A DNA stretch of 32,000 nucleotides from Paracoccus suum (GCF_003324675.1 NZ_CP030918.1:1740001-1772000); one strand, 5' to 3'; counted from the stretch's first letter, positions 6,900 to 31,649 are shown. Translations and numbers: made by a program. The notes: generated by a model from the letters alone, not told the origin.

Positions 6900-7149
6900 G
6901 GGAGGGCCTCCCGAGACGGCGCGAAGGCGCACAGTGCCGAAAACACTGTTGAAATCGCTGGGTAAAACAGCAGTCGCGGCACGCGACCCGACCGACCAGC
7001 ACGCCAAAAGCCAAGCCATGTCAATGGCTTGTGCGAATATGGCGAGGCCCTTTTATCTCGCCGTCCTGCTGTCGTTGCTCTCTGCTCCTCCCACCCTTGC
7101 GCACAACGCTCTCTGGAACACGCCAAGCTGCGCCATGATGCGAACCGGC
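6900..7149 (+). promoter_or_regulatory. Candidate oriT / rlx promoter region
   Basis: 250-bp gap directly upstream of the relaxase gene. Inverted repeats GTCGCG-GCA-CGCGAC (6973..6987) and CAAGCCAT-GTCA-ATGGCTTG (7012..7031). Plus-strand GTCCTGC (7063..7069) resembles the MOBP nic core ATCCTG/C. Confidence 0.35.
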
Positions 7150-13399: not shown

Positions 13400-13623
13400 C
13401 TCCCACCGTGCGTCAACGTCACGCCAGAACTACGACTATTATAGACGGAGTTTGAGTGGAAAGCGACCCAGAATCGGTGTTCCTAGAGATTTGACGTCTG
13501 GTCAGTGGCGGGGGCGATTCGGGCAGTGCTAGGCTCTCTCTCCGCAAGCCAAGGCGAGCAGGAGAGATTGTTCGAGGCTTATCGTGCTGCCGGGAGACGA
13601 CGACTCATGCCAGGAACGCCAGA

Positions 13624-17669: not shown

Positions 17670-20600
17670 TTATGCGGCCTCCCGTTCGCCGATGCGTTCG
17701 ACCGGCCAGCGGTCGAAGAGCTTGCCGATGATTACCGGCCCCTGAGCGTCCACCGGCACGAAGAAGCGCAGCTTCCACGAGATGATCTCGTGATAGAGGC
17801 CATAGGCCGTGAGGCGCTGGCGCATCGTGTCGGTGAAGCCGGTGAGTTCGATGCGCAGCGCGCCCATGACGCGGACCCGGCGAAGCTGAAGGCCCTCGGC
17901 GAGATCGAGGATCGTCTTTCCGTCCATAAGGGCGGTGAAGGCATCCTCCGGCGTGATCGACGCGACGCCGATCGCGGTCGCGTGGGCAACCCAGGCAGGC
18001 GAAACGCGGCGGCCGATGATCCGCTCGCCAGCATCGGTCTGGAGCCGATAGACGCGGGTGGATTCGTTCGGCAACCGCTTCCAGATAGGCAACAGGAGAC
18101 CTGTCACCATATGCAGGGTGCTGTCGGAAAACTCCGGCACCTCGGCAATCTCGGCATTCCAGGCAGAGGCGAAGGCGTCCCGGTCGGCTTCGACCCAATG
18201 GGTCTCGGGCATGGTCTTGACCGGGATGTTGTGCGCTTCCGTCGGCCGGATCAGTCGGACACGGCGCTCGATCTCGCCATCGTCCAGCATGACGCTGGTG
18301 GTCGGAACCTGCACGGCGGCGCGGCCCGACCGCTCGTTTACCAACAGTACCGCGCGCGGATCGTCCAGGTTGCCTATGGCCTCCGACAGCGTGACCGGAT
18401 GGTTGCGCTTGCGCTCGATGATGGTCAGCAGGCGGGTCTGGGCGCCGGTTCGCGGATGGGTATAGATTGTTTGACGGTCGGTGACGGTAAAGCTCTCCGC
18501 TCGCAGCGTCTCCAGCCCGGCGTCATAGGTGCCCGACGCGATGGCGCCCTCGATGCGCGCCGTCAGAAGTTGCTCGAAGGCGGTGAACAGCACGCCCTGA
18601 AGCTCAATCGTCAAGGCCAGCAGCCGGTTCAGGAAGGTCGTGATGGCCGGGAGGTCATCCTTGATGCCGTTGGAGTCCATCAGCTTCAAGCCGGTGGCGC
18701 TCTCAAAGCGGTCGAGCGTGCATCCCTCGACCTTGCCGCGGACCAGCAGCAGGTAGAGCTGGCGCAGCGCGTCGCGGGCGTAATGCGATTCCAGATTGTC
18801 TTCGGGCCGAAACAGGCCCTGACCGGCGGTCTGGCGCTGGCCGCGCGTGATCGCGCCCAGGGTGTCGAGACGGCGGGCGATGGTCGAAAGGAAGCGCTTT
18901 TCGGCTTTGACGTTCGTGGTGATCGGCCGGAACAGGGGCGCTTGCTTCTGGTTGGTCCGGTGCGTTCGGCCAAGCCCCTGGATCGCAGTATCGGCCTTCC
19001 ATCCGGCTTCGAGCAGGTAATGGACGCGCAGCCGCGTGTTCCGTGCCGACAGTTCGGCATGATAGCTGCGGCCTGTGCCGCCGGCGTCGGAGAACACCAG
19101 AACCTGCTTGCCGTCGTCCATGAACGCTTGGGTTTCGGCCAGGTTGGCCGAAGCTGCGCGATTCTCGACGACAAGGCGATCAACAGTGACGCCCTTGCCA
19201 GCCTTGCGGATGATGCGCCGCAACCGGCCCGTCACTTCAGCCACGGTATCGGTGCCGAACTGCTGGATGAGCTGGTCCAGCGCACCGGGGACCGGCGGCA
19301 GGCTGGCGAGCTTTGCGATCAGCTCGTCGCGGCGGGCGACCGCTTCGCGGCTTTCGACGGGCCGGCCGTCGCGCATGACGGGCCGCGATGACGTATTGCC
19401 CTCCGAGTCGGTGAACGGCTCGTAGAGCTGCACCGGGAAGGAATGGGCAAGGTAGTCCAGGACATATTCCCTCGGGGTGATGTCCACGCGGACGTCGTTC
19501 CATTCCTCGGTCGGCAGCTCGGCCAGCCGGCGTTCCATAAGCGCCTCGCCGGTCGAGACGATCTGGATGACGGCCGAATGGCCCGCCTCCAGATCGGCTG
19601 CGATGGAGCGGAGCAGCGTCGGGGTTTTCATGCTGGTCAGGAGATGGCCGAAAAACCGCTGCTTGGCCGACTCGAAGGCCGAGCGCGCGGCGGATTTCGC
19701 CTGCCGATTCAGGGTGCCGGTGCTGCCGGTGATATTGGCCGCTTCCATCGCCGCATCCAGATTGTTGTGAATGATGGCGAAGGCCCCGGCATAGGCATCG
19801 TAGATGCGGGTCTGTTCCGGGGTCAGCTCATGCTCGACCAGCTCGTATTCGACGCCGGCGAAGGACAGCGACCGGGCGGTGTAGAGGCCGAGGGCGCGCA
19901 TGTCGCGGGCCAGAACCTCCATCGCCGCGACGCCGCCGCCCTCGATGGCCTCGACGAATTCGGTCCGCGTGGCGAACGGGAAATCCTCGCCGCCCCAAAG
20001 GCCAAGGCGCTGGGCATAGGCGAGGTTGTGGACCGTAGTGGCGCCGGTCGCGGAGACATAGACGATGCGGGCGTCCGGCAGGGCGTGCTGGAGGCGAAGC
20101 CCGGCTCGGCCCTGCTGGCTGGCGGCGACATCGCCCCGTTCTCCCTTGCCGCCTGCGGCGTTCTGCATCGAATGCGCCTCGTCGAAGATGATCACTCCAT
20201 CGAAATCCTCGCCCAACCATTCGACGATCTGCTTGACGCGGGAAACCCTATCGCCGCGGTCGTCTGAGCGTAGCGTGGCATAGGTCGTGAAAAGGATGCC
20301 TTCGGGCAGCGTCACGGGCTTGCCCTGCGGGAAGCGCGACAGCGGCGTAACCAGGAGGCGCTCCATGCCGAGCGCCGACCAGTCGCGTTGTGCGTCTTCC
20401 AGCAATTTGTCGGATTTGGAGATCCAGACGGCCTTGCGGCGGCCCTGCATCCAGTTGTCGAGGATGATGGCGGCGGATTCCCGACCCTTGCCGACGCCGG
20501 TGCCGTCACCGACGAAGAAGCCTTGCCGGAAGCGGACGGCGTTCTTGGCGTCCTCGGCCGCCGCGCTGACCACATCGCAGGTCTCGTCGACGGTCCAGGC

Positions 20601-22016
20601 CCCGGCGAGATGGTCGGCATGGGCCTGGCCGGCATAGATGACGGTCTCAAGCTGCGCGTCGGACAGAAGACCAAGAATGGTCTTCGGCAGATGCGGTCGG
20701 TAGCCGGGCTTCGGCGGGGCGACGCTCGCCATCGCCGCCGACTGGACGAGCTGGGTTGGATGAGGCTGGGCGCCGGGAATACGGATGACCTGAAGCGCGT
20801 ATTCCTCATAGATGGCGTCGGTGATGTGGCCGCCCTCGGCCGGCTGCCAATCGACAATCTCATAGTCGAGCGGTGCGGCTTCCGGCTCGGTCTGCGGCGC
20901 CGGGCGGGCGGCTTTCGCCGTGGCGGCGATATAGCCGCGCACGGTGCGAGGCGTAGGCGCTGCGGCAACCGGGACAACGACTGAAGGATCGACAGGCTGA
21001 CGCGCGGGCAGGCTCGCGCCGATCCAGACCATCAGGGTGGCGGCATCCGGTGCGGCGCCGGGAGAGGTCGGGAAGACTGCCGGATCGTCGGCGGGCAGCT
21101 TGTCGATGACGGTGATCCGGGTATCGATCGTCGTGCCATGCTTGGCATAGACAGAACCATCGACTGCGGCGGAGAAGACCACGCGACCGCGCTCCTGCAG
21201 CCGGACGAAGGCCGGGGTCCAGGCAGGATTATCGGGGGCGAAGCTCGCGCCGGTGATCGTCACCAGCCGCCCGCCGGGCGCAAGGCGCGCAAGCGCCGAA
21301 GCGACGTGGCGGAAGGCGGCATCGGCGACGCGGCCCTGGACATTCGCCAGCGCCGAGAACGGCGGGTTCATCAGCACCACGGACGGGACCAGGGCAGGAT
21401 CGAGGTGATCGTCGATCTGCGCCGCGTCGAAACGCGTGACGGACAAGGCGGGAAAGAGGGAGGAAAGAAGACCGGCGCGCATCTCGGCCAGCTCGTTGAG
21501 GACGAGCGCGCCGCCGGCGATCTCGGCCAGGATGGCGAGCAGTCCGGTCCCGGCCGAGGGTTCCAGAACCCGGTCGGCGGGCGTGATGGCGGCGGCAGTC
21601 GCGGCCGCCAGCCCCAGCGGGATCGGGGTGGAGAATTGCTGGAAGGTCTGCGCCTCCTCCGAGCGGCGTGTATGGGTCGGCAGCAGCCCGGCGATCCGCG
21701 TCAGCAGCGGCAGGCTATCGGCTGGCGAACCGGCTTTACGGAAAAGCGCCTTTCCGTACTTGCGCAGGAACAGGACGATCGCGGCCTCGCTGGCGTCATA
21801 GGCGGTTTTCCAGTCCCAGGCGCCAGCGGTATCGGACGCGCCGAAGGCGGTTTCCATCGCGCTGCGAAGCGTGGCGGCGTCGATGCGCTGGCCGCGCTCG
21901 AGGTGAGGCAGAAGAAGACCTGCCGCCGAAAAGACGGACGTGGCGGCATGGCTGTCGGGGACAAGCGGAAGCGGCCCGGCGACCGATGCCGCCGCGGATG
22001 CGGAAATCATGTTCAT
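17670..22016 (-). CDS. Large fusion of an N6-adenine-type SAM methyltransferase and a strawberry-notch/SNF2-like helicase
   Basis: Motif I LEPSAGTGLLA, motif IV NPPF, P-loop GDGTGVGKGRE and DEAH box IIFDEAHSMQN. Probable start MNMISASAA at 22016 (GAGG upstream); the track ORF extends to 22133. Confidence 0.9.
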   Translation of the reverse strand: MNMISASAAASVAGPLPLVPDSHAATSVFSAAGLLLPHLERGQRIDAATLRSAMETAFGASDTAGAWDWKTAYDASEAAIVLFLRKYGKALFRKAGSPADSLPLLTRIAGLLPTHTRRSEEAQTFQQFSTPIPLGLAAATAAAITPADRVLEPSAGTGLLAILAEIAGGALVLNELAEMRAGLLSSLFPALSVTRFDAAQIDDHLDPALVPSVVLMNPPFSALANVQGRVADAAFRHVASALARLAPGGRLVTITGASFAPDNPAWTPAFVRLQERGRVVFSAAVDGSVYAKHGTTIDTRITVIDKLPADDPAVFPTSPGAAPDAATLMVWIGASLPARQPVDPSVVVPVAAAPTPRTVRGYIAATAKAARPAPQTEPEAAPLDYEIVDWQPAEGGHITDAIYEEYALQVIRIPGAQPHPTQLVQSAAMASVAPPKPGYRPHLPKTILGLLSDAQLETVIYAGQAHADHLAGAWTVDETCDVVSAAAEDAKNAVRFRQGFFVGDGTGVGKGRESAAIILDNWMQGRRKAVWISKSDKLLEDAQRDWSALGMERLLVTPLSRFPQGKPVTLPEGILFTTYATLRSDDRGDRVSRVKQIVEWLGEDFDGVIIFDEAHSMQNAAGGKGERGDVAASQQGRAGLRLQHALPDARIVYVSATGATTVHNLAYAQRLGLWGGEDFPFATRTEFVEAIEGGGVAAMEVLARDMRALGLYTARSLSFAGVEYELVEHELTPEQTRIYDAYAGAFAIIHNNLDAAMEAANITGSTGTLNRQAKSAARSAFESAKQRFFGHLLTSMKTPTLLRSIAADLEAGHSAVIQIVSTGEALMERRLAELPTEEWNDVRVDITPREYVLDYLAHSFPVQLYEPFTDSEGNTSSRPVMRDGRPVESREAVARRDELIAKLASLPPVPGALDQLIQQFGTDTVAEVTGRLRRIIRKAGKGVTVDRLVVENRAASANLAETQAFMDDGKQVLVFSDAGGTGRSYHAELSARNTRLRVHYLLEAGWKADTAIQGLGRTHRTNQKQAPLFRPITTNVKAEKRFLSTIARRLDTLGAITRGQRQTAGQGLFRPEDNLESHYARDALRQLYLLLVRGKVEGCTLDRFESATGLKLMDSNGIKDDLPAITTFLNRLLALTIELQGVLFTAFEQLLTARIEGAIASGTYDAGLETLRAESFTVTDRQTIYTHPRTGAQTRLLTIIERKRNHPVTLSEAIGNLDDPRAVLLVNERSGRAAVQVPTTSVMLDDGEIERRVRLIRPTEAHNIPVKTMPETHWVEADRDAFASAWNAEIAEVPEFSDSTLHMVTGLLLPIWKRLPNESTRVYRLQTDAGERIIGRRVSPAWVAHATAIGVASITPEDAFTALMDGKTILDLAEGLQLRRVRVMGALRIELTGFTDTMRQRLTAYGLYHEIISWKLRFFVPVDAQGPVIIGKLFDRWPVERIGEREAA

Positions 22017-22110
22017 GGGGAGACCTCGGGAGAGCAGGACAGGATCGAGCCGCGCAGCGCTCTCTCTCGACCGCACAGGCTCAAACCCGTCCCGGCCTCC
22101 TCTGACTCTC
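22017..22110 (-). promoter_or_regulatory. Conserved structured leader element, copy a (upstream of the methylase-helicase gene)
   Basis: mRNA sense: GAGAGTCAGAGGAGGCCGGGACGGGTTTGAGCCTGTGCGGTCGAGAGAGAGCGCTGCGCGGCTCGATCCTGTCCTGCTCTCCCGAGGTCTCCCC-ATG. It shares the GAGAGT(G/C)AGAG box, the GACGGG/C(C/U)UGUC helix and the GAGAGAG hairpin with copies b-d. Confidence 0.65.
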
Positions 22111-22133
22111 GAAAGGTAGGCCGTGGCCGGCAT

Positions 22134-22165
22134 TCAAAAAGCGCCCTGCCTAATGGCAGGACGCT
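22134..22165 (-). terminator. Rho-independent terminator
   Basis: Minus sense: AGCGUCCUGCC-AUUA-GGCAGGGCGCU (11 bp including one U-G) followed by UUUUUG, 9 nt after the stop at 22174. Confidence 0.8.
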
Positions 22166-22173
22166 TGCAGGGT

Positions 22174-22818
22174 TCAACCGAAGCGGCGGCCGGTTGCCGT
22201 GAACGTGTATTCGTTGGCGGTGATCGCCTCGTCGACGGCCTCGTCCGAGGTGAGATACTCGTATTCGCGTTCGAGCTGCCGGTAGAGCCAACGGGCCAGG
22301 TCGCGCAGCGCCTCGGCCACGGCGTCTTCCGCATCGGCCGTCATATCCTGATAGGTTGGACTGTCGCGCTCGACCGAGATCGTCATGCAGTATTCGTGGT
22401 AGTAGTGACCGCGATGGCTCGCCTCGGCGCGAAGCTGGTAGAAATTACGCCGCTGGACCGCCTGAAGCGCCTCGGCGATGCGGTGCAGTTCGGCGTCTTG
22501 CGGCGCGTGTTCCCTGATCCGGCGCGGGGCGTTTTTCCGGTAGGAATAGAAGGTCTCGAAGCAGGCGCCGTCGCCCTGGCTCCAGAACCCCCGAAACCAG
22601 ATGCAGGGCTTCTGCCGGGAGCCGACGCCGTTGAGCCGCATGCTGCGGGTTTTCAGCCGAAGGCCGAGGATTTCCGCGATCTGTTGGAAATCCTCGTAAA
22701 CGGCATCATACCAGTCGTAGTCGAAGCCGCCTTCGCGATACCAATCGCGGGCCTTCTCCTTGGCGGCGTCAGCAAGCTCGTCGAGCTGATAGACCGTGGT
22801 TTCGATGACCTTACTCAT
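22174..22818 (-). CDS. Conserved conjugative-element protein of unknown function (214 aa)
   Basis: MSKVIETTVYQLDELADAAKEKARDWYREGGFDYDWYDAVYEDF...CIWFRGFWSQGDGACFE. GGAGG lies 8 nt upstream of the ATG at 22818, which overlaps the upstream gene by 8 nt. From memory this family is sometimes labelled an antitoxin-like stability protein; I cannot verify that here. Confidence 0.7.
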   Translation of the reverse strand: MSKVIETTVYQLDELADAAKEKARDWYREGGFDYDWYDAVYEDFQQIAEILGLRLKTRSMRLNGVGSRQKPCIWFRGFWSQGDGACFETFYSYRKNAPRRIREHAPQDAELHRIAEALQAVQRRNFYQLRAEASHRGHYYHEYCMTISVERDSPTYQDMTADAEDAVAEALRDLARWLYRQLEREYEYLTSDEAVDEAITANEYTFTATGRRFG

Positions 22819-23227
22819 CTGAGCCGCCTCCATCGAGAACCTGGGCGAGCCAGCCATCGGTGTAGGTCCATGCCACCGTCTCGCCGGTGGCGAGGTCGAG
22901 GACATGAGCGCCGCCGCCGAAACCGTCGAGGCGTGGCCGCGAGCAGGTGTTGGCGTATTGGAAGCCCCAGAGACCACTGAGGCGGAACTCGGTCGCGCAG
23001 ATCTTCACGAACCGCAGCAGACGCTCGGGATCGCCTGTCTGGTCATCGCGCATCCAGAGCCGGGCACCCCCGTGCTCCGGCTGGATCGATAGGAGAAACC
23101 CCTCGGACGGCGGTTCGTCGGAAGCGCCTTCCTCCGAAAGCTTGTTGTAGAGGTCAAGCGCTCGGGCGGCATTATCGGGCGTGCCGACGTCAAGCAGGCA
23201 CGAGAAATGGGTAAAGTAGTTGGCCAT
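22811..23227 (-). CDS. Hypothetical protein (138 aa)
   Basis: MANYFTHFSCLLDVGTPDNAARALDLYNKLSEEG..., ATG at 23227 preceded by AGGAG. The N-terminal part of track ORF 22811..23527 is a spurious extension. Confidence 0.65.
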   Translation of the reverse strand: MANYFTHFSCLLDVGTPDNAARALDLYNKLSEEGASDEPPSEGFLLSIQPEHGGARLWMRDDQTGDPERLLRFVKICATEFRLSGLWGFQYANTCSRPRLDGFGGGAHVLDLATGETVAWTYTDGWLAQVLDGGGSDE

Positions 23228-23238
23228 GTCAGGCTCCT

Positions 23239-23269
23239 GAAACGAGAAAGCCCGGCGCGATGGCCGGGC
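23239..23269 (-). terminator. Rho-independent terminator
   Basis: Minus sense: GCCCGGC-CAUCGC-GCCGGGC followed by UUUCUCGUUUC. Confidence 0.65.
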
Positions 23270-23301
23270 GAGGTTCAAGGGATGGACGCGGTGCGGAAGC
23301 G

Positions 23302-23505
23302 TCAGAGGCGGAACTGCGCCACAAGCCGCTGGGCATCGGCATGGTGGCGCAGCATGTCGCGATAGAACCGCTTTCGCGCGCCCCGCAGTGCGGGATCGCG
23401 CCGGGCCGATAAAGCCAGCTTGCAGCGCGCGGCGCGGATTACGGCGCGCTGGCTGTCCCAGACCAGGATGTCGAGGCGCAGGTAGGTCGCATACATCGCC
23501 ACCAC
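23302..23505 (-). CDS. Small hypothetical protein (64-67 aa)
   Basis: Helical-looking ORF YATYLRLDILVWDSQRAVIRAARCKLALS... The GTG at 23505 abuts the upstream stop; there is an alternative ATG at 23496. Confidence 0.45.
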   Translation of the reverse strand: MVAMYATYLRLDILVWDSQRAVIRAARCKLALSARRDPALRGARKRFYRDMLRHHADAQRLVAQFRL

Positions 23506-23906
23506 CTAGACGTTGATGCGTTCGCACAGAGCGTCGATACGAGTCGGATCGAGGCCGGTATGCGCGCCGTCATTGGTGACGATCTTTTCGAGCGCAGGTT
23601 CGAGATCGCCGCGCCCAAGGGCGAGCTGGAGGAGGCGCAGCCCCGCCAGCAAGGCGTCGCGCTCCTGGGCGGTGATGCCGATGGTAGGAACGCCTCGACG
23701 GCTTCACCGTCGTCGAGGAGGCGAACGCCGCTGTGCTCGTCGATCTCGTAATCGTCGAACTCCTGCACATAGCCGGTGGGGAGCCATGCGCCTTCGTAAT
23801 GAACGCTCCGGACGAGACTTCGCGCCTCTTCGGGCGTGTCGGCCTCTAGGACGGTTTCGTAATAGACGAAGGCGTCGTGGCCTTTGCTGACGACGAATTT
23901 CTGCAT
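23506..23906 (-). pseudogene. Small conserved-looking gene split by a -1 frame change (about 132 aa if repaired)
   Basis: The N-terminal frame MQKFVVSKGHDAFVYYETVLEADTPEEARSLVRSVHYEGAWLPTGYVQEFDDYEIDEHSGVRLLDDGEAVEAF turns into P/S/R-rich junk. My own translation of the -1 frame from 23703 gives ...PTIGITAQERDALLAGLRLLQLALGRGDLEPALEKIVTNDGAHTGLDPTRIDALCERINV ending at TAG 23508..23506. Confidence 0.6.
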
Positions 23907-23928
23907 GGGAAAACTCCATAGGTGAGAA

Positions 23929-23950
23929 CCCGGCGAAGCGAAGCGCCGGG
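23929..23950 (-). terminator. Hairpin (possible terminator) between two minus-strand genes
   Basis: CCCGGCG-8 nt-CGCCGGG, followed in minus sense by UUCUCACC. Confidence 0.4.
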
Positions 23951-23978
23951 TCGGATGGGTGGAAATCGGGGGATGGGA

Positions 23979-24536
23979 TCAGGCGGCCTGAGGCAGCCGG
24001 AGCAGATCGGCGGCGGCCTCGCGCCAGAAGGGGTCGACCAGGCGTGCTTCGAGCAGGCCGACCTGGTGGCGATGATTGCGGGCCGCACCCTGCTCGCCCC
24101 GGCCGGAGGCGGCGAAAGCCAGTCCGCGCAGGCGGCTGGCTTCGATCACGATCCGACGGGCCTCGCCGTCGCTGGCGACAGGCTGTTGCCAGAGAATGAT
24201 CCCGGCGCGGATTTCGCCGGCCAGAACCAGATTCTGATCGTTGTCCTGGATGACGGCGAAGCGTGGATGAAAGCGCAGCGTCTTATCTTGTCCCACGCCA
24301 ATGCCGCCGCGCCTGACCGAAACGGCCGCGAAGCTGGTGGCGTTCTCCAGCGACGGGCGGTCGCCGAGAAAGACGCTGCGGTCGAAGCTGTCGGCCTCGT
24401 CGGTGCCGGCATAGCGGGCCGTGCCGATGCAAGTGATGCGCAGCGGCAGCTTCGCGGCAAGGCGCAGCCGGGGCAGGATCTGATGCGCGAGGATGTCGCC
24501 GATCGGGGCGAAGGTGGTTTGAGGTGCATGGGCCAT
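23979..24536 (-). CDS. Hypothetical protein (185 aa)
   Basis: MAHAPQTTFAPIGDILAHQILPRLRLAAKLPLRITCIGTARYAGTDEADSF... The ATG at 24536 sits directly after leader copy b (GGAG 11 nt upstream). Confidence 0.6.
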   Translation of the reverse strand: MAHAPQTTFAPIGDILAHQILPRLRLAAKLPLRITCIGTARYAGTDEADSFDRSVFLGDRPSLENATSFAAVSVRRGGIGVGQDKTLRFHPRFAVIQDNDQNLVLAGEIRAGIILWQQPVASDGEARRIVIEASRLRGLAFAASGRGEQGAARNHRHQVGLLEARLVDPFWREAAADLLRLPQAA

Positions 24537-24622
24537 CGCAGGATGCTCCAGGACGGGCGCCGGGAGCTCTCTCTCCGGCAACCAACCCGTCACGGAAAAC
24601 CCGTCCGCACTCTCACTCTCCC
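24537..24622 (-). promoter_or_regulatory. Conserved structured leader element, copy b
   Basis: mRNA sense: GGGAGAGTGAGAGTGCGGACGGGTTTTCCGTGACGGGTTGGTTGCCGGAGAGAGAGCTCCCGGCGCCCGTCCTGGAGCATCCTGCG-ATG. Confidence 0.7.
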
Positions 24623-24731
24623 TTGTCGGGGCATGAGCCGGTGCCGCTGCCGGCGATGAGCGGTAGCGCAGCGCTGAAGGCCCGGACGCGATCTTGCGCT
24701 CCGAGCCGTCGGGGTGAGGCGCTGTCGCGCC

Positions 24732-24896
24732 TCAGCCGAAGGGATCAAGTTCCAGCCTGACCATTTCTTCGTCGCCATCGAATTCGTTGGCGGGCATGGC
24801 GCCGTGAGTGCCGTCCCCGGCCTGGTAGACGATAATCGAAACCATCAGCGTGGTGGCTAGGCTTGCGGCGAAAGCGGTGGCATCTGCATAGGACAT
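24732..24896 (-). CDS. Small hypothetical protein (54 aa)
   Basis: MSYADATAFAASLATTLMVSIIVYQAGDGTHGAMPANEFDGDEEMVRLELDPFG, with AGGAG 8 nt upstream of the ATG at 24896. Confidence 0.5.
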   Translation of the reverse strand: MSYADATAFAASLATTLMVSIIVYQAGDGTHGAMPANEFDGDEEMVRLELDPFG

Positions 24897-24977
24897 GGTT
24901 CCGGCTCCTGTCTTGGGAGGCGGGGGACCATCCCCCGCGCGACAGGCGCCCGAAGTGTCTGACCGGCTCTGCAATCA

Positions 24978-25014
24978 CCCTCGGGCGTTCGGACGTTTTC
25001 CGAATCCCCGAGGG
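24978..25014. other. Strong 37-nt imperfect hairpin (8 bp + 6 bp)
   Basis: CCCTCGGG-CG-TTCGGA-CGTTT-TCCGAA-TC-CCCGAGGG. No flanking T/U run on either strand. Confidence 0.6.
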
Positions 25015-25350
25015 CGGCACGCGCGCGTAAGCCGACCCCTTGCGGGTTGATTGATAAGGAGACGGATCGGACCAAGGTTGCGAATGGAAGCGGGATGGTG
25101 TCCGCCATCAGACAAAAGCCGGATCATCAATCTAAAAGGGTGCCATCGCCCCCCGCACTTCCCGCCTGTTGGTGAAGCGAAGATGTTTGAGGGTGTGAGC
25201 TGTCCGGGCACGAGCTTGGCCCGCTATGGCGTTTCATGGCGCCGAGGTCGACCGGTGGAATTGATGAAAATACTATGAGCGGCCGGTTGCGTCAGGATGG
25301 AATTCATACGCGCTCGAAGCTTTGATTGGGCCTCTTGTTGAGGTGAAGCC

Positions 25351-25500
25351 ATGAGCAGAAATGCACTTTTGCGGGCAACGATGAAGACGAACGAGAGCAG
25401 CCGATCATCCTGGCGTATGGCGATGACGGTTATCGGAGCGGCGTTTGGGGTCTGGACGAAGTCCGACACACCGAATCAACGAGGCGATCGACACTCATGA
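25351..25500 (+). CDS. Possible small membrane peptide (49 aa)
   Basis: My own translation: MSRNALLRATMKTNESSRSSWRMAMTVIGAAFGVWTKSDTPNQRGDRHS. GAGGTG lies 5 nt upstream, and the stop overlaps the next start (ATGA). Confidence 0.35.
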   Translation: MSRNALLRATMKTNESSRSSWRMAMTVIGAAFGVWTKSDTPNQRGDRHS

Positions 25501-25709
25501 TGAATGGGTATGTGACGGGTAAGTCCGCCAATGTCGGTGGAGAGCGACGGCGTTATACGGTCATTGAGAAGCCCGATGGGTGGTGCGTTAGCCTGAACGG
25601 GATGACAACGGGGGCGTTTCCGAACCGGGCCGCGGCTGCAACTGTGGCGAGGAGCCTCCAGCACCAAGCCGATAACCTCAATCACGTCTACGAGCGGAAA
25701 TCCCACTGA
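25497..25709 (+). CDS. Small DUF2188-like protein (70 aa)
   Basis: RRYTVIEKPDGWCVSLNGMTTGAFPNRAAAATVARSLQHQ fits the DUF2188 pattern (Y-x-V...GW-x-V...f.t..eAi..Ar). Confidence 0.5.
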   Translation: MMNGYVTGKSANVGGERRRYTVIEKPDGWCVSLNGMTTGAFPNRAAAATVARSLQHQADNLNHVYERKSH

Positions 25710-25776
25710 GAGGGGAACCGGCTACCGCCATTTGACGGCCGGCTGGTAGATATATGTCGGAGGTGGGAGTTCCCTG

Positions 25777-25812
25777 AAAATGAAAAAAGGCCCGACGACG
25801 GATCGCCGGGCC
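25777..25812 (-). terminator. Rho-independent terminator (second of a tandem pair after the parB-like gene)
   Basis: Minus sense: GGCCCG-12 nt-CGGGCC followed by UUUUUUCAUUUUC. Confidence 0.75.
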
Positions 25813-25831
25813 TTGAAGCTGAAGATGAAGA

Positions 25832-25859
25832 CGGCGGGGCGGCTTCGACCGCCCCGCCG
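25832..25859 (-). terminator. GC-rich 11-bp hairpin directly after the parB-like stop
   Basis: CGGCGGGGCGG-CTTCGA-CCGCCCCGCCG, followed in minus sense by UCUUCAUCUUC. Confidence 0.5.
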
Positions 25860-25923
25860 GGGTTTGGCGTCATTCCGCGGCGATCATCGATGGCGCCTCG
25901 GCTTCCGGATCTTCGGCGGTTTC

Positions 25924-28017
25924 CTAGTCCTCGTCCTCACCGGCAAGGAAGGCTGGGAGCGCCGTCTCGGCCTCGCCTTCCGAGGCATCGGACGTGGTCG
26001 GCTCGTCATAGTCGATCAGGCGCAGCGGCTCCGGTAGCCAGCCACTGTCGGCCAGCAGGCGTTCGGCCTCCTTGGCCATGTCGCCCTTCTTCAGGTGGTC
26101 GACGAGCTGGGCCGCGCGTTCGCCCGCGCCTTCGCGGACGGCCGCAAGAATGCGGGGCTTGGTGACGCGGCCGAGATAGTTCTCGACCGTGGGTCGGAAG
26201 CCGACGTCCACCATGTCGAGGCCGGTGGCGCGGGCCAGTCGATCGGCCTCTGCCATACGCCGGTCGAGGCCCGACTGCGACACGCCGCTGCCGCTGTAGG
26301 GATTGGGCCGTTCATAGAGGGCGTTGATCCCATAGCTGACGCAATGCGCTAGCAGCGCCATGCGGCTGGCGTCGTCGAGCACGGCGAGCCAGTCCCACAG
26401 CGCATCCTCATCGGCTGGTAGGTCAGCCTTCCAGTCCTCATGCCGCTGGGTGACGGACTTGGCATAGGCCGTCTCGGCGAGATCCTTGCCTTGTTCGCGG
26501 AAGAAGACGTGATTGACGGACGCCTGCAGGCTCGCGCCGGAGGTGCCCGTCCGCTGGAAGGTGTCGCGCACGAGCTTGTGCAGCAAGGCGGTAAACGCGA
26601 CCTGGGGATTGGCGCCCACGGCATCGCGGAGCGCCAGGGTGCGGTGCGCCGTCAGTTCGGTAACGAGCCGTTCGGGCAGCGGCTTGATGACGTCTTCCTC
26701 GTCGTCATCCTCCGGTTCGGCCGACTGGCCGTCGATGGTGATGACGGCGCGCTGGACGGTGCCTGCAGCCGCGACTTCGGTACCGGTGGTTTCGGCCTCG
26801 CCGTCGGGGTCGTCGACGCCGACCAGCGTCTCGTCCTCCGGGCGCACATAGCCGCGATCGACGACGGGCTCGCCATCGCGGTCGACGCTGATGAAGACGC
26901 CGCCACGCGCGATGTCGGCCGGATCGTAGATGACCGGGCGCTTTTCAAAGGCTTCGAGCGCCGTCTCGATCTCGCCGAGACGCTGGTCGATCTCGTCCGG
27001 CAGCTCGTCGGCTTCCGAGTATTCAGCTTCGATCCGTTCGTATTCCTCACGCAGGGCTTCGCGGGCCGCGCGCTCGTCATCGTTCAAATCGACCAGGGTG
27101 AAGTCGAGCGCCCGAAGCCCCTGGTCGTAGCCATAGGGCAGATCGGTATCGACGGCGATCCACTTCCAGCCCTCGGCGGCAATTTCATCGGCGAGGGTCT
27201 TGAGCTTCTCGCCGACCAGACGGTCGAGAAGCGCGGGGTCCTGAAGCCAGCCGCCTCCATCGGTCTGGAAGAGATCGCGCAGCACGCTGCCGCCCGCCTG
27301 CTCATAGGTTTCGATGCCGATGAACAGGGCGCGCTTGTCGGTGGCCGGCACCGTGGTTTCAGTGAGCAACTGGCGGATATACCAGGGCTGGCGATTGTGG
27401 GAGGTCTGGACCGTCTCCCAGACCTGCTCCTGGCGGGCATGGTCGGGATTGACGGTGAAGGCCATCAGCTCTTCGAGCTTCATGCCGTCCTCGGCATAGA
27501 TGTCGAGGAGCGTGGGCGAGACAGAGGCCAGACGCAGGCGCTGCTTCACCACCTGCGCGGTCGTGAAGAAGGCCGCAGCGATCTCCTCCTCGCTCATGCC
27601 CTTGCGGCGCATGTCGTAGAAGGCCCGGAACTGATCGAGAGGATGCAGCGGCACGCGCTGGGTGTTTTCGGCGAGGCTGTCGTCCTCGGCGAGAATCGAC
27701 GTGGAGGGATCACGCACGACGCAGGGCACAGGCGCGGTCCTGGCGAGACGCTTCTGCTTCACGAGGATGGCGAGCGCCTGATAGCGGCGACCGCCGGCGG
27801 GAACTTCATACATGTCGGTCTCATCGCCCCTGGCGTCGAGGACCGGGCGGACATTGAGGCTCTGGAGGAGCGTGCCTCGGCGGGCGATGTCCTCGGCCAG
27901 TTCCTCGACCGAGACGCCGGCCTTGACGCGTCGGACATTCGATTGGCTGAGCACGAGCTTGTTGAAGGGGATGTCGCGGGAAGGCGACAGGATGATTTTC
28001 TGGGCGGCAGTAGCCAT
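25924..28017 (-). CDS. Large ParB/Srx N-terminal-domain protein (697 aa; KorB/ParB-like, not adjacent to parA)
   Basis: LSQSNVRRV...YEVPAGGRRYQALAIL carries the ParB GxxRxxA/arginine box. Long acidic central and C-terminal regions. Confidence 0.85.
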   Translation of the reverse strand: MATAAQKIILSPSRDIPFNKLVLSQSNVRRVKAGVSVEELAEDIARRGTLLQSLNVRPVLDARGDETDMYEVPAGGRRYQALAILVKQKRLARTAPVPCVVRDPSTSILAEDDSLAENTQRVPLHPLDQFRAFYDMRRKGMSEEEIAAAFFTTAQVVKQRLRLASVSPTLLDIYAEDGMKLEELMAFTVNPDHARQEQVWETVQTSHNRQPWYIRQLLTETTVPATDKRALFIGIETYEQAGGSVLRDLFQTDGGGWLQDPALLDRLVGEKLKTLADEIAAEGWKWIAVDTDLPYGYDQGLRALDFTLVDLNDDERAAREALREEYERIEAEYSEADELPDEIDQRLGEIETALEAFEKRPVIYDPADIARGGVFISVDRDGEPVVDRGYVRPEDETLVGVDDPDGEAETTGTEVAAAGTVQRAVITIDGQSAEPEDDDEEDVIKPLPERLVTELTAHRTLALRDAVGANPQVAFTALLHKLVRDTFQRTGTSGASLQASVNHVFFREQGKDLAETAYAKSVTQRHEDWKADLPADEDALWDWLAVLDDASRMALLAHCVSYGINALYERPNPYSGSGVSQSGLDRRMAEADRLARATGLDMVDVGFRPTVENYLGRVTKPRILAAVREGAGERAAQLVDHLKKGDMAKEAERLLADSGWLPEPLRLIDYDEPTTSDASEGEAETALPAFLAGEDED

Positions 28018-28100
28018 CGTGGTAGTCTCCGCGACGGGCGCCGAGAGCCTCTCTCTCGACCCGAACCCGTCACGAAAATCCCCACCTCCCTCTCACTCTG
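28018..28100 (-). promoter_or_regulatory. Conserved structured leader element, copy c
   Basis: mRNA sense: CAGAGTGAGAGGGAGGTGGGGATTTTCGTGACGGGTTCGGGTCGAGAGAGAGGCTCTCGGCGCCCGTCGCGGAGACTACCACG-ATG. Confidence 0.7.
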
Positions 28101-28223
28101 CTGGTCGGACCCTGTCGTCTGGCTAGGGGCGAGAACGGAACGGCGATGTTCAGGACTGTCTTCCTGTGCCATAGGGATTGCATCGCCTGCGGCTTGAGCA
28201 CCGCATCGATCGCATCAAGCGTT

Positions 28224-28330
28224 TGAACACTGGGTCACCGACTATGTCGGGCGGCCCACGGAATAGAATACCCATCAGCGTCGGGCTTGCCCGGCGTGGG
28301 AAATACGTGGGGCGCGGTTCCCAGTGTTCA
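28224..28330. repeat. Perfect 11-bp inverted repeat TGAACACTGGG / CCCAGTGTTCA separated by 85 bp
   Basis: Arms at 28224..28234 and 28320..28330, plus an extra direct half-copy GTGTTCA at 28334..28340. Lies upstream of the plus-strand orphan gene. Confidence 0.7.
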
Positions 28331-28378
28331 CGCGTGTTCAACCGTCCCGGCGCCAGTCGGGGCGGCGGGGAATTGTCT

Positions 28379-28681
28379 ATGGACGCTATGATTTCTGGCT
28401 TTAGAAATCCGCCCTGGGCGGACTTGGCGCGCGTTCTGCGCCGATGGCTGGGCGCGTCGCCAGCCCGCCATGTCCGCTTTTCCGAGGCGGACCGGGCCGT
28501 CATCACCGCGCAGGGCAAGGCACTGATGCTGTTGGCGACAATGCTTCACGCACGGGGCGTGATGGATATGGAGGAGTTCGCCGGCACGCTCGGCGTGTTC
28601 AGCGTAGTTGTCGCTGAGGACAACGCGGCCGAAGGCGACATTCTCGCTGTCTGGGCAGGGTTGATGAAGGACGGCCGGTAG
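28379..28681 (+). CDS. Hypothetical protein (about 100 aa) on the opposite strand to the surrounding operons
   Basis: MDAMISGFRNPPWADLARVLRRWLG...ITAQGKALMLLATMLHARGVMDMEEFAGTLGVFSVVVAEDNAAEGDILAVWAGLM is protein-like with G/C-rich third positions. The track ORF start at 28178 is probably too far upstream. Confidence 0.5.
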   Translation: MDAMISGFRNPPWADLARVLRRWLGASPARHVRFSEADRAVITAQGKALMLLATMLHARGVMDMEEFAGTLGVFSVVVAEDNAAEGDILAVWAGLMKDGR

Positions 28682-28717
28682 GCTGAGCGTCGTAGCGCAA
28701 AGCTGCAAGCTGACGAG

Positions 28718-28797
28718 CCGGAAACGCGGAAAACCGCAGAACCGGACACCCGGAAAGACGGAAAGCCGGAGAAGCGGCTTTGCGCATCTGCGGCTTT
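28718..28797. repeat. Ten phased 8-bp units (NCGGAAAN type)
   Basis: CCGGAAAC GCGGAAAA CCGCAGAA CCGGACAC CCGGAAAG ACGGAAAG CCGGAGAA GCGGCTTT GCGCATCT GCGGCTTT. Lies between two convergent genes. The period is not a multiple of 3. Confidence 0.8.
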
Positions 28798-28804
28798 CAG
28801 GGAA

Positions 28805-29746
28805 TCAGACCCCGCACATGCCCTCGCACTCGTTCGGCCAGAGATCGAGCTGGCCGCGGTCGGCGGCCGTCGATAGGTGGGCTTGGTCGAGCGGCACGGC
28901 GGAGCGGTGCAGATAGACTTCGGCGCGGATGCCGCGGAAACCGGTGCGGATGGCGGCGTCGACCGACACGGCGTCCGCCCAGGCTTCATGGTCGCGCATC
29001 TGTCGCCAGTGATCGTCGGAATGAAACGGACACCCGATGCAGGCGCTTTTGGGCGGCAGCGGATAATCATGCCGTTCCAGCCAGCGCAGACAATCCCGGC
29101 GGGTCAGGCCCCGCTCGATCAGGGGCCAGCGGTTGACCTGCCAGCTCTCGAAAGAGGGTTTCATGCGAAGCGCCTCGTCGAGCGAAATCCCGATCCATTG
29201 CTCGGCGACCGGCGACGTGGGCGAGCGCCGCCCTGCGATGCCGAGCAGCTCGCGCACTTTCCGCTTGATCGGCACGATCTTGTAGTCTCCGGTGCATTGG
29301 CAGCGGATCATGCCGATGCTGGCCCGCTCGGTCGCCACGATGCGGGAGCCGACGACGACGAGATCGCCGTTTTCATCCTCGTCATAGACGGGAAGCTCGC
29401 TCCCGGCAGGCGTCACGGTGCGGGTGAAGGCTGGAATGGAGGCCCAACGCTCGCCCTGTGCGCCGGCGATGAGGTCGGCGCGCAGATCCCCGCCTGAGAC
29501 GATATGGACGGGAAACGGCAAGACATTGGGCGACCGCAGCCAGGCGAGATGGTCATAGACGGCCTGCGGCTCCCACCCGGTGTCGGCGAAGATGGCGCAA
29601 TCGGGCATGGGGCCGACTTCGCCATGCGCCGCCATCAGCGCCAGCGTGGTGGACTGGACGCCGGCGCCCAGGCTGAGGACGCGCAGGCGGATGTCGGCCG
29701 ACTGCGCGGGGTCGGGGACGAAACCCGGAAAGGCGAGCGCGTTCAT
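28805..29746 (-). CDS. PAPS-reductase/PP-loop ATP-pyrophosphatase-like protein with C-terminal Cys cluster
   Basis: PP-loop-like LSLGAGVQST, plus CIGCPFH and a C-terminal ECEGMCGV. The ATG at 29746 overlaps the ardC TGA by 1 nt (alternative GTG at 29749). Confidence 0.75.
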   Translation of the reverse strand: MNALAFPGFVPDPAQSADIRLRVLSLGAGVQSTTLALMAAHGEVGPMPDCAIFADTGWEPQAVYDHLAWLRSPNVLPFPVHIVSGGDLRADLIAGAQGERWASIPAFTRTVTPAGSELPVYDEDENGDLVVVGSRIVATERASIGMIRCQCTGDYKIVPIKRKVRELLGIAGRRSPTSPVAEQWIGISLDEALRMKPSFESWQVNRWPLIERGLTRRDCLRWLERHDYPLPPKSACIGCPFHSDDHWRQMRDHEAWADAVSVDAAIRTGFRGIRAEVYLHRSAVPLDQAHLSTAADRGQLDLWPNECEGMCGV

Positions 29747-30699
29747 CACGCCGCCTCCTGCTCGTCGTCGTTCTGGTCGATGCTGCCGGCATGCGGCAGG
29801 AAGCTGAGAAGCCAGTCGGCCGCCTTGCTGGCCTGCGAGGCGGCTCGGACGATGGCGCGGTTGTCCTCGCGCAGCACCTCCAGCCAGGAGCCGATATAGT
29901 CGGCATGGCGCACGGTCGGGACGATCCCGAGCGCGGCGCAGCTATAGGCCGAGATCAATTCGGCGGTGATTTCCTCGACCGAATAGAGCTTCGAGCCGAA
30001 GGAGCCTGAGAGGTTCCGGTTCAGCCGGTGCTCTGCGCCGCTCGCGTGACCGAGTTCATGCAAGGCCGTCCGGTGCCAGTTGATCGGCTCGAAATAGGCG
30101 GCTGGCGGAGGGACTTGCACGTAGTCGAGCGACGGAACGTAGAACGCCCGGTTGCCGCCAATGCGGAAATCGATGCCGGTCGCTTTGATGAGCGCCTCCA
30201 CCTGGGGCTCGATCATGCCGGGCGGCGGCGGCGGCGCGGTCGCCTCGATGTCTTCGGGCAGGTCGTCGCATTGCGCCGTGTTGAACACCGTGAAGCGCTT
30301 CAGGAACGGGATCGCCTGCGCTTCCTCGCCAGCCTCGAAGGCGCGGCGCTTCTCGTCCTCCGGCGTGAAGCGGTCGGCATAGACGACGGTGGTGCCGCGC
30401 TCGCCCTTGCGGACATGGCCGCCGAGCGACAGTGCCTGGCGGAAGGTGAGCCAGCCCTGGCCGGGAAAGCCGTGCTCGATGACGGCTCCCCAGAGGATCA
30501 GGACATTGATGCCGCTGTAGCTTCGCGAAGTTGCGGCGTTGCGCGGCAGGCCAAGCGGGGCCTTGGCCGCCGACGTGCCCCAAGGCTGGACCCACGGCAC
30601 GCGGCCAGCTTCCAGCTCCCCGATGATCTTGTCGGTGATTTCGTCATAGAGGTTCGCCCGGTCGGCTCCGGCACGAACGCGGCGATCGTTTCTGGACAT
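29746..30699 (-). CDS. ardC: ArdC-type antirestriction protein (ssDNA-binding N-domain + zincin metallopeptidase)
   Basis: N-terminal LYDEITDKIIGELEAGRVPWVQPW and C-terminal HEXXH (ALHELGHASG). Confidence 0.9.
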   Translation of the reverse strand: MSRNDRRVRAGADRANLYDEITDKIIGELEAGRVPWVQPWGTSAAKAPLGLPRNAATSRSYSGINVLILWGAVIEHGFPGQGWLTFRQALSLGGHVRKGERGTTVVYADRFTPEDEKRRAFEAGEEAQAIPFLKRFTVFNTAQCDDLPEDIEATAPPPPPGMIEPQVEALIKATGIDFRIGGNRAFYVPSLDYVQVPPPAAYFEPINWHRTALHELGHASGAEHRLNRNLSGSFGSKLYSVEEITAELISAYSCAALGIVPTVRHADYIGSWLEVLREDNRAIVRAASQASKAADWLLSFLPHAGSIDQNDDEQEAA

Positions 30700-30782
30700 C
30701 GCGGCTCTCCGCGACGGGCGCCGGAAGCCTCTCCTCCAGCTCTCTACCCGTCACGGCAAAACCGGTCCGCACTCTCACTCTA
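30700..30782 (-). promoter_or_regulatory. Conserved structured leader element, copy d
   Basis: mRNA sense: TAGAGTGAGAGTGCGGACCGGTTTTGCCGTGACGGGTAGAGAGCTGGAGGAGAGGCTTCCGGCGCCCGTCGCGGAGAGCCGCG-ATG. Confidence 0.7.
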
Positions 30783-30857
30783 ATAGTTCAGGCACTGCAT
30801 CGTGTGGTCGGGCAGCGCCATGATCGGCGCGGTGCGATCAAGTGAAACGGCGCGTGA

Positions 30858-31115
30858 TCAAGCAGTGCGCTCGGACCGCCAGTGGCCATCTTGGCCCTTG
30901 GCGAGCCGCCAGTTCTGCACGGTTACGAGCGTGCCGCGGGCGGTGCGATAGTCGGGAACGGTGAGACGGATGGAATCGCCTTCGGCGCGCCATTCCGCGA
31001 TGACGGTGACGCCGTCGCCGAACTCGACCAGGCAGTCGGGCGCGGCCTTCCCATCATCGTCGACGGTGACGCGGCCTTTCCGAAAGGCATGGCTATGAGG
31101 AAACAGGAAACGCAT
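30858..31115 (-). CDS. Small hypothetical protein (85 aa)
   Basis: Strong SD AAGGAGAAAG upstream of the ATG at 31115. Beta-rich-looking sequence; no family recognised. Confidence 0.6.
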   Translation of the reverse strand: MRFLFPHSHAFRKGRVTVDDDGKAAPDCLVEFGDGVTVIAEWRAEGDSIRLTVPDYRTARGTLVTVQNWRLAKGQDGHWRSERTA

Positions 31116-31271
31116 TCGGGCGCTTTCTCCTTCTCGGCGTCTTACGCCTTGAAGATCGCGCTGGACGATCGCCTGACAAGGGGGCGTTGCGGGGTCTCCC
31201 CGCAGAAGGGGGTGTGCCGGCGACCTTGGCGCCGGCCAGGGGGAAGGCTTTCCCCCTTCACCTGAATTTGC

Positions 31272-31649
31272 TCACCTGGTCCCGGCCTGCTTCCGACGAC
31301 GGGCCACGGTACGAACGCCAGCACTATCGCCCATGGTCATGTCACCCAGGCTATGGAGATGAAGCGCCGGATGCGATGGCAGCGTCACCGTAAGTTCGAG
31401 CTTGCCGCCGACGGCCTCGACATAGCTGCGCAGCGTCGAGAGATACATATCCGCCTGCTTTTCGATCTTGGACACCGACGGCTGCTTGATGTTGAGGGCC
31501 GAGGCGATGTCTTCCTGCGCTTTGCCGGCGATCTGGCGCAGCTCGCGCAGACCCTCGACCTCCTGCCGCAGTTCCTGATAGCGCGCTTCGATAGCTGCCT
31601 GTTCGTCAGCAGGAAGCCCGGCAATGATTTCGTTCAGGCTCCGAGCCAT
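31272..31649 (-). CDS. XRE-family HTH antitoxin (HigA-like)
   Basis: MARSLNEIIAGLPADEQAAIEARYQEL...LRELRQIAGKAQEDIASALNIKQPSVSKIEKQADMYLSTLRSYVEAVGGKLELTV is the typical antitoxin partnered with RelE/ParE(HigB/Gp49)-type toxins. Confidence 0.8.
   Translation of the reverse strand: MARSLNEIIAGLPADEQAAIEARYQELRQEVEGLRELRQIAGKAQEDIASALNIKQPSVSKIEKQADMYLSTLRSYVEAVGGKLELTVTLPSHPALHLHSLGDMTMGDSAGVRTVARRRKQAGTR

Follow-up and report, generated by a model that had tools for sequence, protein, structure and literature searches.

Why should four genes of one conjugative element each be preceded by a similar structured stretch that runs up to the start codon? This question is raised by a 32,000-nucleotide (nt) segment of the Paracoccus suum genome (GCF_003324675.1, NZ_CP030918.1:1740001-1772000; hereafter the window, from the first letter of which coordinates are counted), in which a Tn4371-related alphaproteobacterial conjugative element has its backbone on the minus strand. 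The timing of anti-restriction and establishment gene expression is largely unexplained outside Enterobacteria, and the known solutions are single-stranded DNA (ssDNA) promoters in IncF and IncI plasmids and repressor operators in plasmid p576. We consider it fairly probable that the four elements are cis-acting structured mRNA leaders of establishment and anti-restriction genes that gate translation through occlusion of the Shine-Dalgarno (SD) sequence. The leader offers a concrete, mutable handle on establishment-gene timing in a very widespread group, being present in at least 80 species-level genomes of Alphaproteobacteria and one of Dyella, in 262 plasmid records and in at least 120 metagenome contigs.

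Four leaders and their relatives

All four copies lie on the minus strand where a reading of the sequence alone (the original prediction) had placed them, and each runs up to the ATG of an open reading frame (ORF). Leader a (22014..22112) ends in the ATG of a helicase gene, leader b (24534..24622) in that of a gene for a 185-amino-acid (aa) protein, leader c (28015..28102) in that of a ParB-like gene, and leader d (30697..30784) in that of ardC. The box AGAGTSAGAG occurs at exactly four sites in the window, all of them within the leaders (22109..22100 in a, 24619..24610 in b, 28099..28090 in c and 30781..30772 in d). A covariance model, R1, was built from the four copies and 37 non-redundant homologues of copy c, and both strands of the window were searched with the filters off. 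Leaders b, c and d scored 74.2 bits, 94.1 bits (E = 8e-24) and 71.9 bits (E = 9e-18), respectively; the best match outside the four copies, on either strand, reached 14.7 bits. Because R1 gives leader a only 15.8 bits, compared to 104.7 bits from R2, a separate covariance model for what we term type II leaders, this leader is assigned to a sister subtype. Thus, the claim of one shared element in four copies stands as regards the relatedness of the copies, but these fall into two subtypes, type I (b, c and d) and type II (a).

The type I leader has a free AGAG-N2-AGAG(G) purine box, then a variable segment and, after it, a two-part hairpin of about 22 bp, at the base of which lies the SD sequence; the ATG follows 7-11 nt further on. 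The hairpin is composed of helix P1 (13 bp) and helix P2 (8-9 bp), which are coaxial on the 3' side and separated by a 4-nt bulge on the 5' side, and its stems are GC-rich (GACGGG/CCCGUC and GAGAG/CUCUC). In the minimum free energy structure of copy c, the U-tract and the 5' arm of P1 (UUUUCGUGACGGGU) occupy positions 28065..28078, the P2 hairpin (GUCGAGAG, AGAGG loop, CUCUCGGC), which bears the GAGAGAGAG tract, positions 28040..28060, and the 3' arm of P1, which includes the SD sequence GGAG (28030..28027), positions 28026..28039. The architecture proposed originally, namely P1, P2 with a GAGAGAG tract, GGAG and the ATG 7-11 nt on, describes leaders b, c and d, but copy a has GAGG as its SD sequence (22027..22024). 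Furthermore, GGAG had been taken to lie merely 3' of the helix; we find instead that the helix reaches into the SD sequence, so that GGAG is part of the structure.

The predicted RNA folds of the sense strand range from -38 to -54 kcal/mol (-53.8 for leader a, -41.5 for c and -42.1 for d), with z-scores relative to shuffled sequences of -3.8, -1.9, -4.2 and -4.9 for a, b, c and d, respectively. The GAGAGAGAG tract, which in leader a is located in the apical loop, is conserved as sequence: it is half-paired in type I and lies wholly in the apical loop in type II. Similarly, the box is kept as sequence rather than as structure: of 242 copies, 228 retain two AGAG-like halves at a spacing of six bases. 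The alternative fold via a second GACGGG, suggested for copy b, does exist, but with only 81 of the 242 copies capable of forming it, it is not a defining feature.

Related elements were collected in a protein-guided scan, with one genome per species, which yielded 80 loci; apart from one in Dyella, they come from a wide range of alphaproteobacterial genera. Three of them, in Enterovirga, Devosia and Brevundimonas, are 98% identical to the window, and strains of this kind include Devosia equisanguinis CIP 111628 and Enterovirga aerilata DB1703. The 80 loci contain 169 R1 copies, without exception on the gene strand and with an ATG at their end, and 79 further copies detected with R2, again all on the gene strand; no copy of either type was found on the opposite strand. 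A pattern scan of metagenomes, with the hits subsequently scored with R1, added at least 120 stretches, plus four contigs from a viral collection. Among these are at least 113 further R1 matches, 112 of 113 ending in ATG and one in GTG. In a blastn comparison of copy c with plasmids, homology was found in 262 records, where it opens at the AGAG box and extends into the ParB-like gene.

The leader precedes the ParB-like orthologue in 79 of the 80 loci, as anticipated for an element that accompanies orthologous genes. In the same loci, the genes behind type I leaders are ParB-like (79), ardC (61), members of the 185-aa family (17) and weakly DUF932-like (9), with single cases of a PAPS-reductase-like gene, RadC and a 135-aa protein. 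Among the metagenome matches listed, at least 44 of these genes are ParB-like, at least 39 ardC, at least 14 DUF932-like, at least 4 of the 185-aa family and at least one RadC. The type II leaders form a conserved family of their own, sited before the helicase gene. The proposal that the leader is common to anti-restriction and establishment genes agrees with what is seen in the window and in every related element examined. Another leader-preceded gene family encodes proteins of approximately 120-135 aa, unassigned to any family, with the motif HLSIGRGGF..YG.G..L.GYD (L071:1080-1156, L204:3673-3762 and L135:580-666 in our numbering of loci).

The set and the order of the leader-bearing genes vary among elements, and the hairpin is strand-specific. 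Both properties could be expected of a recombination junction, in which case the 90-nt leader would be an attC-like exchange site for establishment-gene cassettes. We consider this explanation barely credible given that no integron-type integrase or attC core motifs are found and that the SD pairing and the ATG junction speak for a role in expression, with shuffling being a by-product of the repeated homology.

Covariation and the strand that folds

Covariation in P2, first drawn from the four copies, holds on 130, 113 and 76 distinct homologues. Across the 130 distinct type I homologues, 97.4% of 2727 cells are standard pairs compared to 44-50% when the partners are slid; both sides change at 10 of 21 pairs, and none of 500 shuffles matches the observed covariation, these counts being made irrespective of phylogeny. 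A plain MAFFT alignment, which is not fitted to the model, gives 95.5% standard pairs against 41-48% with slid partners, and the slid controls over all type I sets span 41-53%. The two helices evolve differently: P1, with 98.8% standard pairs in the 130 homologues, is largely invariant and has fixed U-G wobbles, whereas P2 alternates between G-C, A-U and G-U pairs, with changes on both sides at 6 of its 8 pairs. The metagenome set (113 sequences), which was chosen on the P1 sequence and is therefore informative mainly for P2, is 95.3% paired, with both-side changes at 14 pairs, including all 8 of P2 (phylogeny again being ignored). In the 76 distinct type II sequences, 82% of the cells are paired compared to 34-59% with slid partners, and 18 of 29 pairs change on both sides, likewise without regard to phylogeny. 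That P1 and the purine motifs are so strongly conserved in sequence suggests that a putative shared partner recognises them.

An additional outer helix considered for type II, between the second AGAG of the box and a downstream CUCUCC, was rejected because the pairs concerned (15-96 and 16-95) are mostly unpaired in the 76 sequences. The RNAalifold alternative, GAGAGCG with CGCUCUC, involves only invariant columns and hence carries no covariation.

The fold is a property of the mRNA-sense strand and not of its complement. The original argument to this effect, derived from wobble pairs in the four copies, is borne out on the larger set. In the sense orientation, there are 538 G-U or U-G cells versus 35 A-C or C-A cells, and when 242 distinct leaders were folded under RNA parameters, the sense strand proved more stable in 241 (-42.0 vs -29.6 kcal/mol). 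On the basis of these two observations the fold is assigned to the mRNA-sense strand. The same is found in 239 of the 242 leaders with DNA parameters, and the complementary strand of the window copies folds poorly as DNA (z from +1.6 to -2.5).

Which strand folds bears directly on the comparison with the known early promoters of conjugative plasmids. In RP4, the relaxase gene enters the recipient last; assuming the same here, the transferred strand would be the plus strand, that is, the template, which folds poorly. The leading regions of IncF and IncI plasmids contain the Frpo/ssi ssDNA promoters, of classes 1-3 (PMC12672017, PMC11541004), and the leaders resemble these in being repeated structured elements located directly before early anti-defence and establishment operons, with no evident conventional double-stranded promoter. 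Under an Frpo/ssi-like explanation, a hairpin of the transferred strand would recruit RNA polymerase or primase on entry, so that early expression would precede complementary-strand synthesis. Besides the shared setting (PMC12672017, PMC11541004), this possibility gains from the failure to detect a sigma-70 promoter nearby, in what is a weak scan, and from the direction of all genes to the presumed side of the origin of transfer (oriT). However, a template-strand hairpin is required, and it is the template that has A-C where the sense strand has G-U, that folds worse in all but one of the 242 leaders (all but three with DNA parameters) and that has z-scores near zero in the window. Moreover, in Frpo/ssi elements the -35 and -10 hexamers are rebuilt by long, imperfectly paired DNA hairpins that form in the transferred (template) strand, whereas the leaders fold in the sense strand, carry no hexamers of this kind within their stems (by inspection and scan), and extend into the SD sequence at a fixed distance from the ATG. 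Although the identity of the transferred strand is derived indirectly, we judge an ssDNA promoter or priming signal to be very improbable.

Predicted occlusion of the Shine-Dalgarno sequence

At the foot of the hairpin, the lower end of P1 passes into the SD sequence. The bases opposite the G, A and G of the SD are Y, U and Y in 123, 120 and 130 of 130 sequences, respectively, which is the pattern to be expected if SD pairing is maintained. In partition-function folds of 151 distinct leaders extended by 12 coding bases, the unpaired probabilities are 0.13 for the SD sequence, 0.37 for the spacer, 0.55 for the AUG and 0.68 for the AGAG box. The leader with the additional 12 nt has a mean predicted energy of -46.6 kcal/mol, and only the lowest 3-4 pairs are weak. 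Thus, the leaders have what is generally characteristic of a structured leader that occludes the ribosome-binding site (RBS), namely, a conserved sense-strand structure located directly 5' of the start codon, with the SD sequence included.

In the model that we favour, the hairpin would keep the RBS, and often the start codon as well, shut, so that all leader-bearing cistrons would be gated alike. Opening would then need a common trigger acting at the single-stranded AGAG motifs or at P1, and candidates are an RNA-binding factor of the element or the host, a standby 30S subunit, or cleavage of the helix. What the sequences show is the structure with its strand and its conservation, the fixed junction with the SD sequence and the ATG, and the set of genes; the action as RNA, the occlusion as its functional output and the identity of the trigger are inferred. 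A trans-acting CUCUC partner was also considered and set aside: of the CTCTCTC runs in the window, all but one, at 13534, are simply the leaders read on the opposite strand, and the surroundings of the exception have no leader-like features.

A more specific and only tentative possibility, which we rate as rather unlikely, is that the leaders, together with the three-hairpin module described below, work as a dedicated system by which GC-rich alphaproteobacterial conjugative elements control zygotic induction at the RNA level. One factor of the element or the host would bind the AGAG and GAGAGAGAG motifs and the invariant P1, such that the anti-restriction and establishment cistrons would be translated only in the fresh transconjugant. 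If true, such a system would play, at the post-transcriptional level, the part that ssDNA promoters have in enterobacterial plasmids.

Several observations weigh against translational gating by SD occlusion. The covariation is equally compatible with RNA and with ssDNA of the sense strand. The pairs that face the SD sequence are weak (U-G, U-A, U-G) and the SD itself is invariant, so that this part of the helix displays a pattern of constraint without compensatory changes. The sequence constraint on P1 is well above the needs of pairing. A further helix, P0, between the variable segment and the SD-ATG spacer, was rejected, the cognate duplexes being only 0.6 kcal/mol better than non-cognate ones. 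Finally, the argument as a whole, including the place of the box within the transcript, is built on sequences and predicted folds.

RBS-sequestering mRNA leaders are a known kind of regulator, exemplified by the fourU RNA thermometers. In fourU and ROSE thermometers, the SD sequence is paired in a hairpin of marginal stability that opens at physiological temperatures. As in fourU, a short U/C tract is predicted to meet the SD sequence where the hairpin begins, through U-G and U-A pairs, which are weak; unlike fourU, the hairpin is long, with a predicted energy of about -40 kcal/mol, it is accompanied by conserved boxes, and several copies are present per element. The genes differ as well: fourU and ROSE elements precede heat-shock and virulence genes, whereas the leaders precede genes for ArdC, ParB-like, DUF932-like, RadC and helicase proteins. 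As anticipated, the leader matches no Rfam family: a search of the window and six related loci against Rfam 15 at the gathering thresholds gave no hits. With E-values of up to 10, nothing in Rfam 15 overlapped the four leaders, and literature searches by topic and by strings of the leader sequence yielded no description of it. The plasmid annotations under the matches are of protein genes only, which says little because the gene table leaves out RNA genes. We class the leader as a new family among the RBS-occluding structured leaders, a kind already known, and it may be part of a larger RNA-based control system. Given its clear covariation and two subtypes, it could enter RNA family databases, and it could serve to flag establishment-gene arrays and their start codons in unannotated elements.

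The arrangement of the leaders along the gene arrays provides a further line of evidence. The leaders had been described as standing before operons; they are indeed directly upstream of genes, but each of these is a single cistron that need not head an operon. Of 90 consecutive leader pairs, 30 have their second leader within 150 nt (median 75) of the preceding stop codon, and 24 of these 30 short gaps contain no run of at least four T, such runs being present in 6. Because the gaps are short and mostly devoid of T runs, several leaders are probably internal to one transcript. Short terminator-free gaps of this kind are more readily reconciled with translational control of each cistron than with promoter function.

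The same arrangement could be invoked for an RNase III-type processing site or 5' stabiliser that would cut the early transcript into cistron-sized mRNAs. Hairpins cleaved by RNase III precede the early genes of phage T7, including the anti-restriction gene 0.3, and in the lambda N leader, processing by this enzyme frees an occluded SD sequence. The likeness to these systems is considerable: conserved two-part hairpins of about 20 bp are located before successive early cistrons, the first of which is an anti-restriction gene. The helix length (about two turns), the two-part form and the internal bulge are all suited to such sites, as is the location of leaders between close cistrons without terminators (the 30 of 90 short-gapped pairs), and a broad-host-range element present in many genera would be well served by a host enzyme that is ubiquitous. 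However, sequence matters little to RNase III, whereas P1, the AGAG box and GAGAGAGAG are conserved far more strongly than this enzyme requires, and cleavage is putative here. We therefore regard processing as an unlikely primary function. The two mechanisms are compatible rather than exclusive, since cutting P1 would also release the SD sequence, as the gating model supposes.

The upstream module, terminators and the host element

Upstream of leader d, at 31180..31256 on the minus strand, lies a three-hairpin module of 77 nt that ends in CCCCGCAACGCCCCC and is also present in related loci (for example, L010:8728-8805). It is made up of GGGGAAAGCCUUCCCC, a covarying middle hairpin, and GCGGGG-N3-CCCCGC followed by AACGCCCCC. 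The module is present exactly once in 45 of the 80 loci, always on the gene strand, and never more than once per locus. In most of the ArdC and DUF932-like copies, it is located 2-5 nt before the AGAG box of the leader; in the window, an 85-aa ORF (31115..30858) lies between the module and leader d. Because the conservation of the module begins abruptly at GGGG and the genes upstream vary, often being divergent, the module probably marks the transcript start, in which case the AGAG box would lie within the RNA. The module favours neither strand in its folding and corresponds to no Rfam family, and some plasmids match it without the leader. In about 12 loci (L006, L010, L015, L020, L023, L024 and others), a divergent gene pair is located directly upstream of the module, at a distance of approximately 20-1500 nt; by eye, this pair resembles an AbiEi/AbiEii toxin-antitoxin system. 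The window has a helix-turn-helix (HTH) gene in the same orientation where relatives carry the divergent pair.

The place of the box relative to the transcript is pertinent to a comparison with the Bacillus plasmid p576, in which Reg576 heptamer operators are situated before ardC and other establishment genes (PMC6294495). In both cases, one short motif recurs upstream of establishment genes, ardC included, and in p576 it co-ordinates them. By analogy, the AGAG-N2-AGAG box, possibly together with the GACGGG repeats, would be a double-stranded DNA operator for a repressor or an activator, resulting in zygotic induction. The box is conserved as sequence in the 228 of 242 copies mentioned above and stands at the 5' edge of the homology, and the element encodes an FseA-like DUF2285 regulator as well as the HTH protein. 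The Reg576 sites, however, are double-stranded heptamer repeats in promoters that are bound by a ribbon-helix-helix repressor, whereas the leaders contain a covarying hairpin of the RNA type. A Reg576-like operator would impose no pairing requirement, which the compensatory changes and the wobble asymmetry contradict for the leader as a whole. The compensatory changes in P2, this asymmetry and the SD pairing would all be left unexplained, and where the covarying module directly precedes the box, as in most ArdC and DUF932-like copies, the box would be inside the RNA. An operator thus appears improbable as an explanation of the leader, even if it could apply to the box alone, beside the RNA structure.

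An intrinsic terminator, GCGUCCUGCC-AUUA-GGCAGGGCGC-UUUUU, is read from the sequence at 22136..22164 on the minus strand, 23 nt upstream of leader a, in agreement with the terminator noted there originally, and a comparable one is located about 20 nt upstream of the type II leaders in most related loci inspected. The reported absence of sigma70-type -35 and -10 elements near copy a is likewise matched by a sigma-70 consensus scan of 21.9-32 kb, which found no promoter, although this is a weak test for Alphaproteobacteria. Two tandem terminator-like hairpins with a CU-rich linker (GUCUUCAUCUUCAGCUUCAA) lie behind the ParB-like gene (25774-25859, minus strand); together, they give a sub-threshold match to suhB/mmgR (33.5 bits vs 41).

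The presence of terminators upstream of type II leaders and behind the ParB-like gene, in a region without visible promoters, would suit processive antitermination, in which RNA polymerase is modified to read through them. The lambda nut and HK022 put sites are antitermination RNAs, and the leaders resemble them in that a linear box stands before a hairpin with a purine-rich loop and this pair recurs where early transcription units begin. A nut- or put-like site would serve for read-through of the terminators before leader a and after parB, and the module, which heads the array and never occurs twice in a locus, is in line with this. However, the leaders, unlike nut and put, are fixed relative to the SD sequence and the ATG, and a base-exact junction in every copy is not required for antitermination. 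Furthermore, a Pfam scan of the 28 ORFs in the window detected no N-, Q- or NusG-like gene. The idea suits the upstream module better than the leaders, for which we consider it quite improbable.

The genes concerned follow one another on the minus strand in order of decreasing coordinate. The HTH protein (31649..31272), in the same orientation as the element genes, is followed by the module, the 85-aa ORF and, behind leader d, ardC (29746..30699; Pfam ArdcN 5e-43 and MPTase-PolyVal 3e-47, corresponding to the ArdC N-terminal and zincin domains). A gene for a 314-aa protein separates ardC from the 697-aa ParB-like gene behind leader c (25924..28017), which has a weak ParB_N match and full-length orthologues in the 80 loci. 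The 185-aa protein behind leader b (24536..23979) has no Pfam match, and behind leader a lies the gene for a 1448-aa Sno-type helicase (17670..22016; AAA_34 1e-121, Helicase_C_4 1e-97). At lower coordinates are the genes for DUF7146-Toprim and YAcAr proteins, then those for a DUF2285/RovC-type regulator, RepA, ParA, DUF2840 and SLT proteins, followed by the DUF3363 relaxase gene (7019..5136) and, after it, TraG.

The protein with the RovC_DNA-bd domain (formerly DUF2285) is encoded at 11887-12591 on the minus strand. This domain is that of the FseA-type transfer activator of Mesorhizobium integrative and conjugative elements (ICEs), which makes the protein a candidate regulator of the element. 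An RP4-type nick motif, ATCCTGY, is not enriched and has no matches in the intergenic stretch upstream of the relaxase gene, at about 7020-7150. In a Tn4371-family ICE, oriT has been mapped experimentally to the traF-traI intergenic region (PMC11448139). It is from this mapped site and the position of the relaxase gene that the label of leading region, as applied here, would follow.

Some minor features of the region were recorded as well. In the ardC-parB intergenic region (about 75 nt) of related loci, such as L010:9842-9914, there are inverted repeats, CGGAAAGGCG..CGCCUUUCCG, and GCGCUGCCCUC..GAGGGCGGCGC flank the AGAG box in the same loci, so that in this subgroup the box can be the loop of an extra hairpin; copy c of the window does not have it. 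Upstream of leader c, in 700 nt without a convincing ORF, a stretch of the plus strand (28246-28359), antisense to the element genes, shows a sub-threshold match to sRNA-Xcc1 (RF02221; 33.9 bits vs a gathering threshold of 53, E = 0.002). At the protein level, the ParB-like product shows 98% identity in genomes from three genera, Enterovirga, Devosia and Brevundimonas (L001-L003), which suggests recent movement of the element across alphaproteobacterial families.

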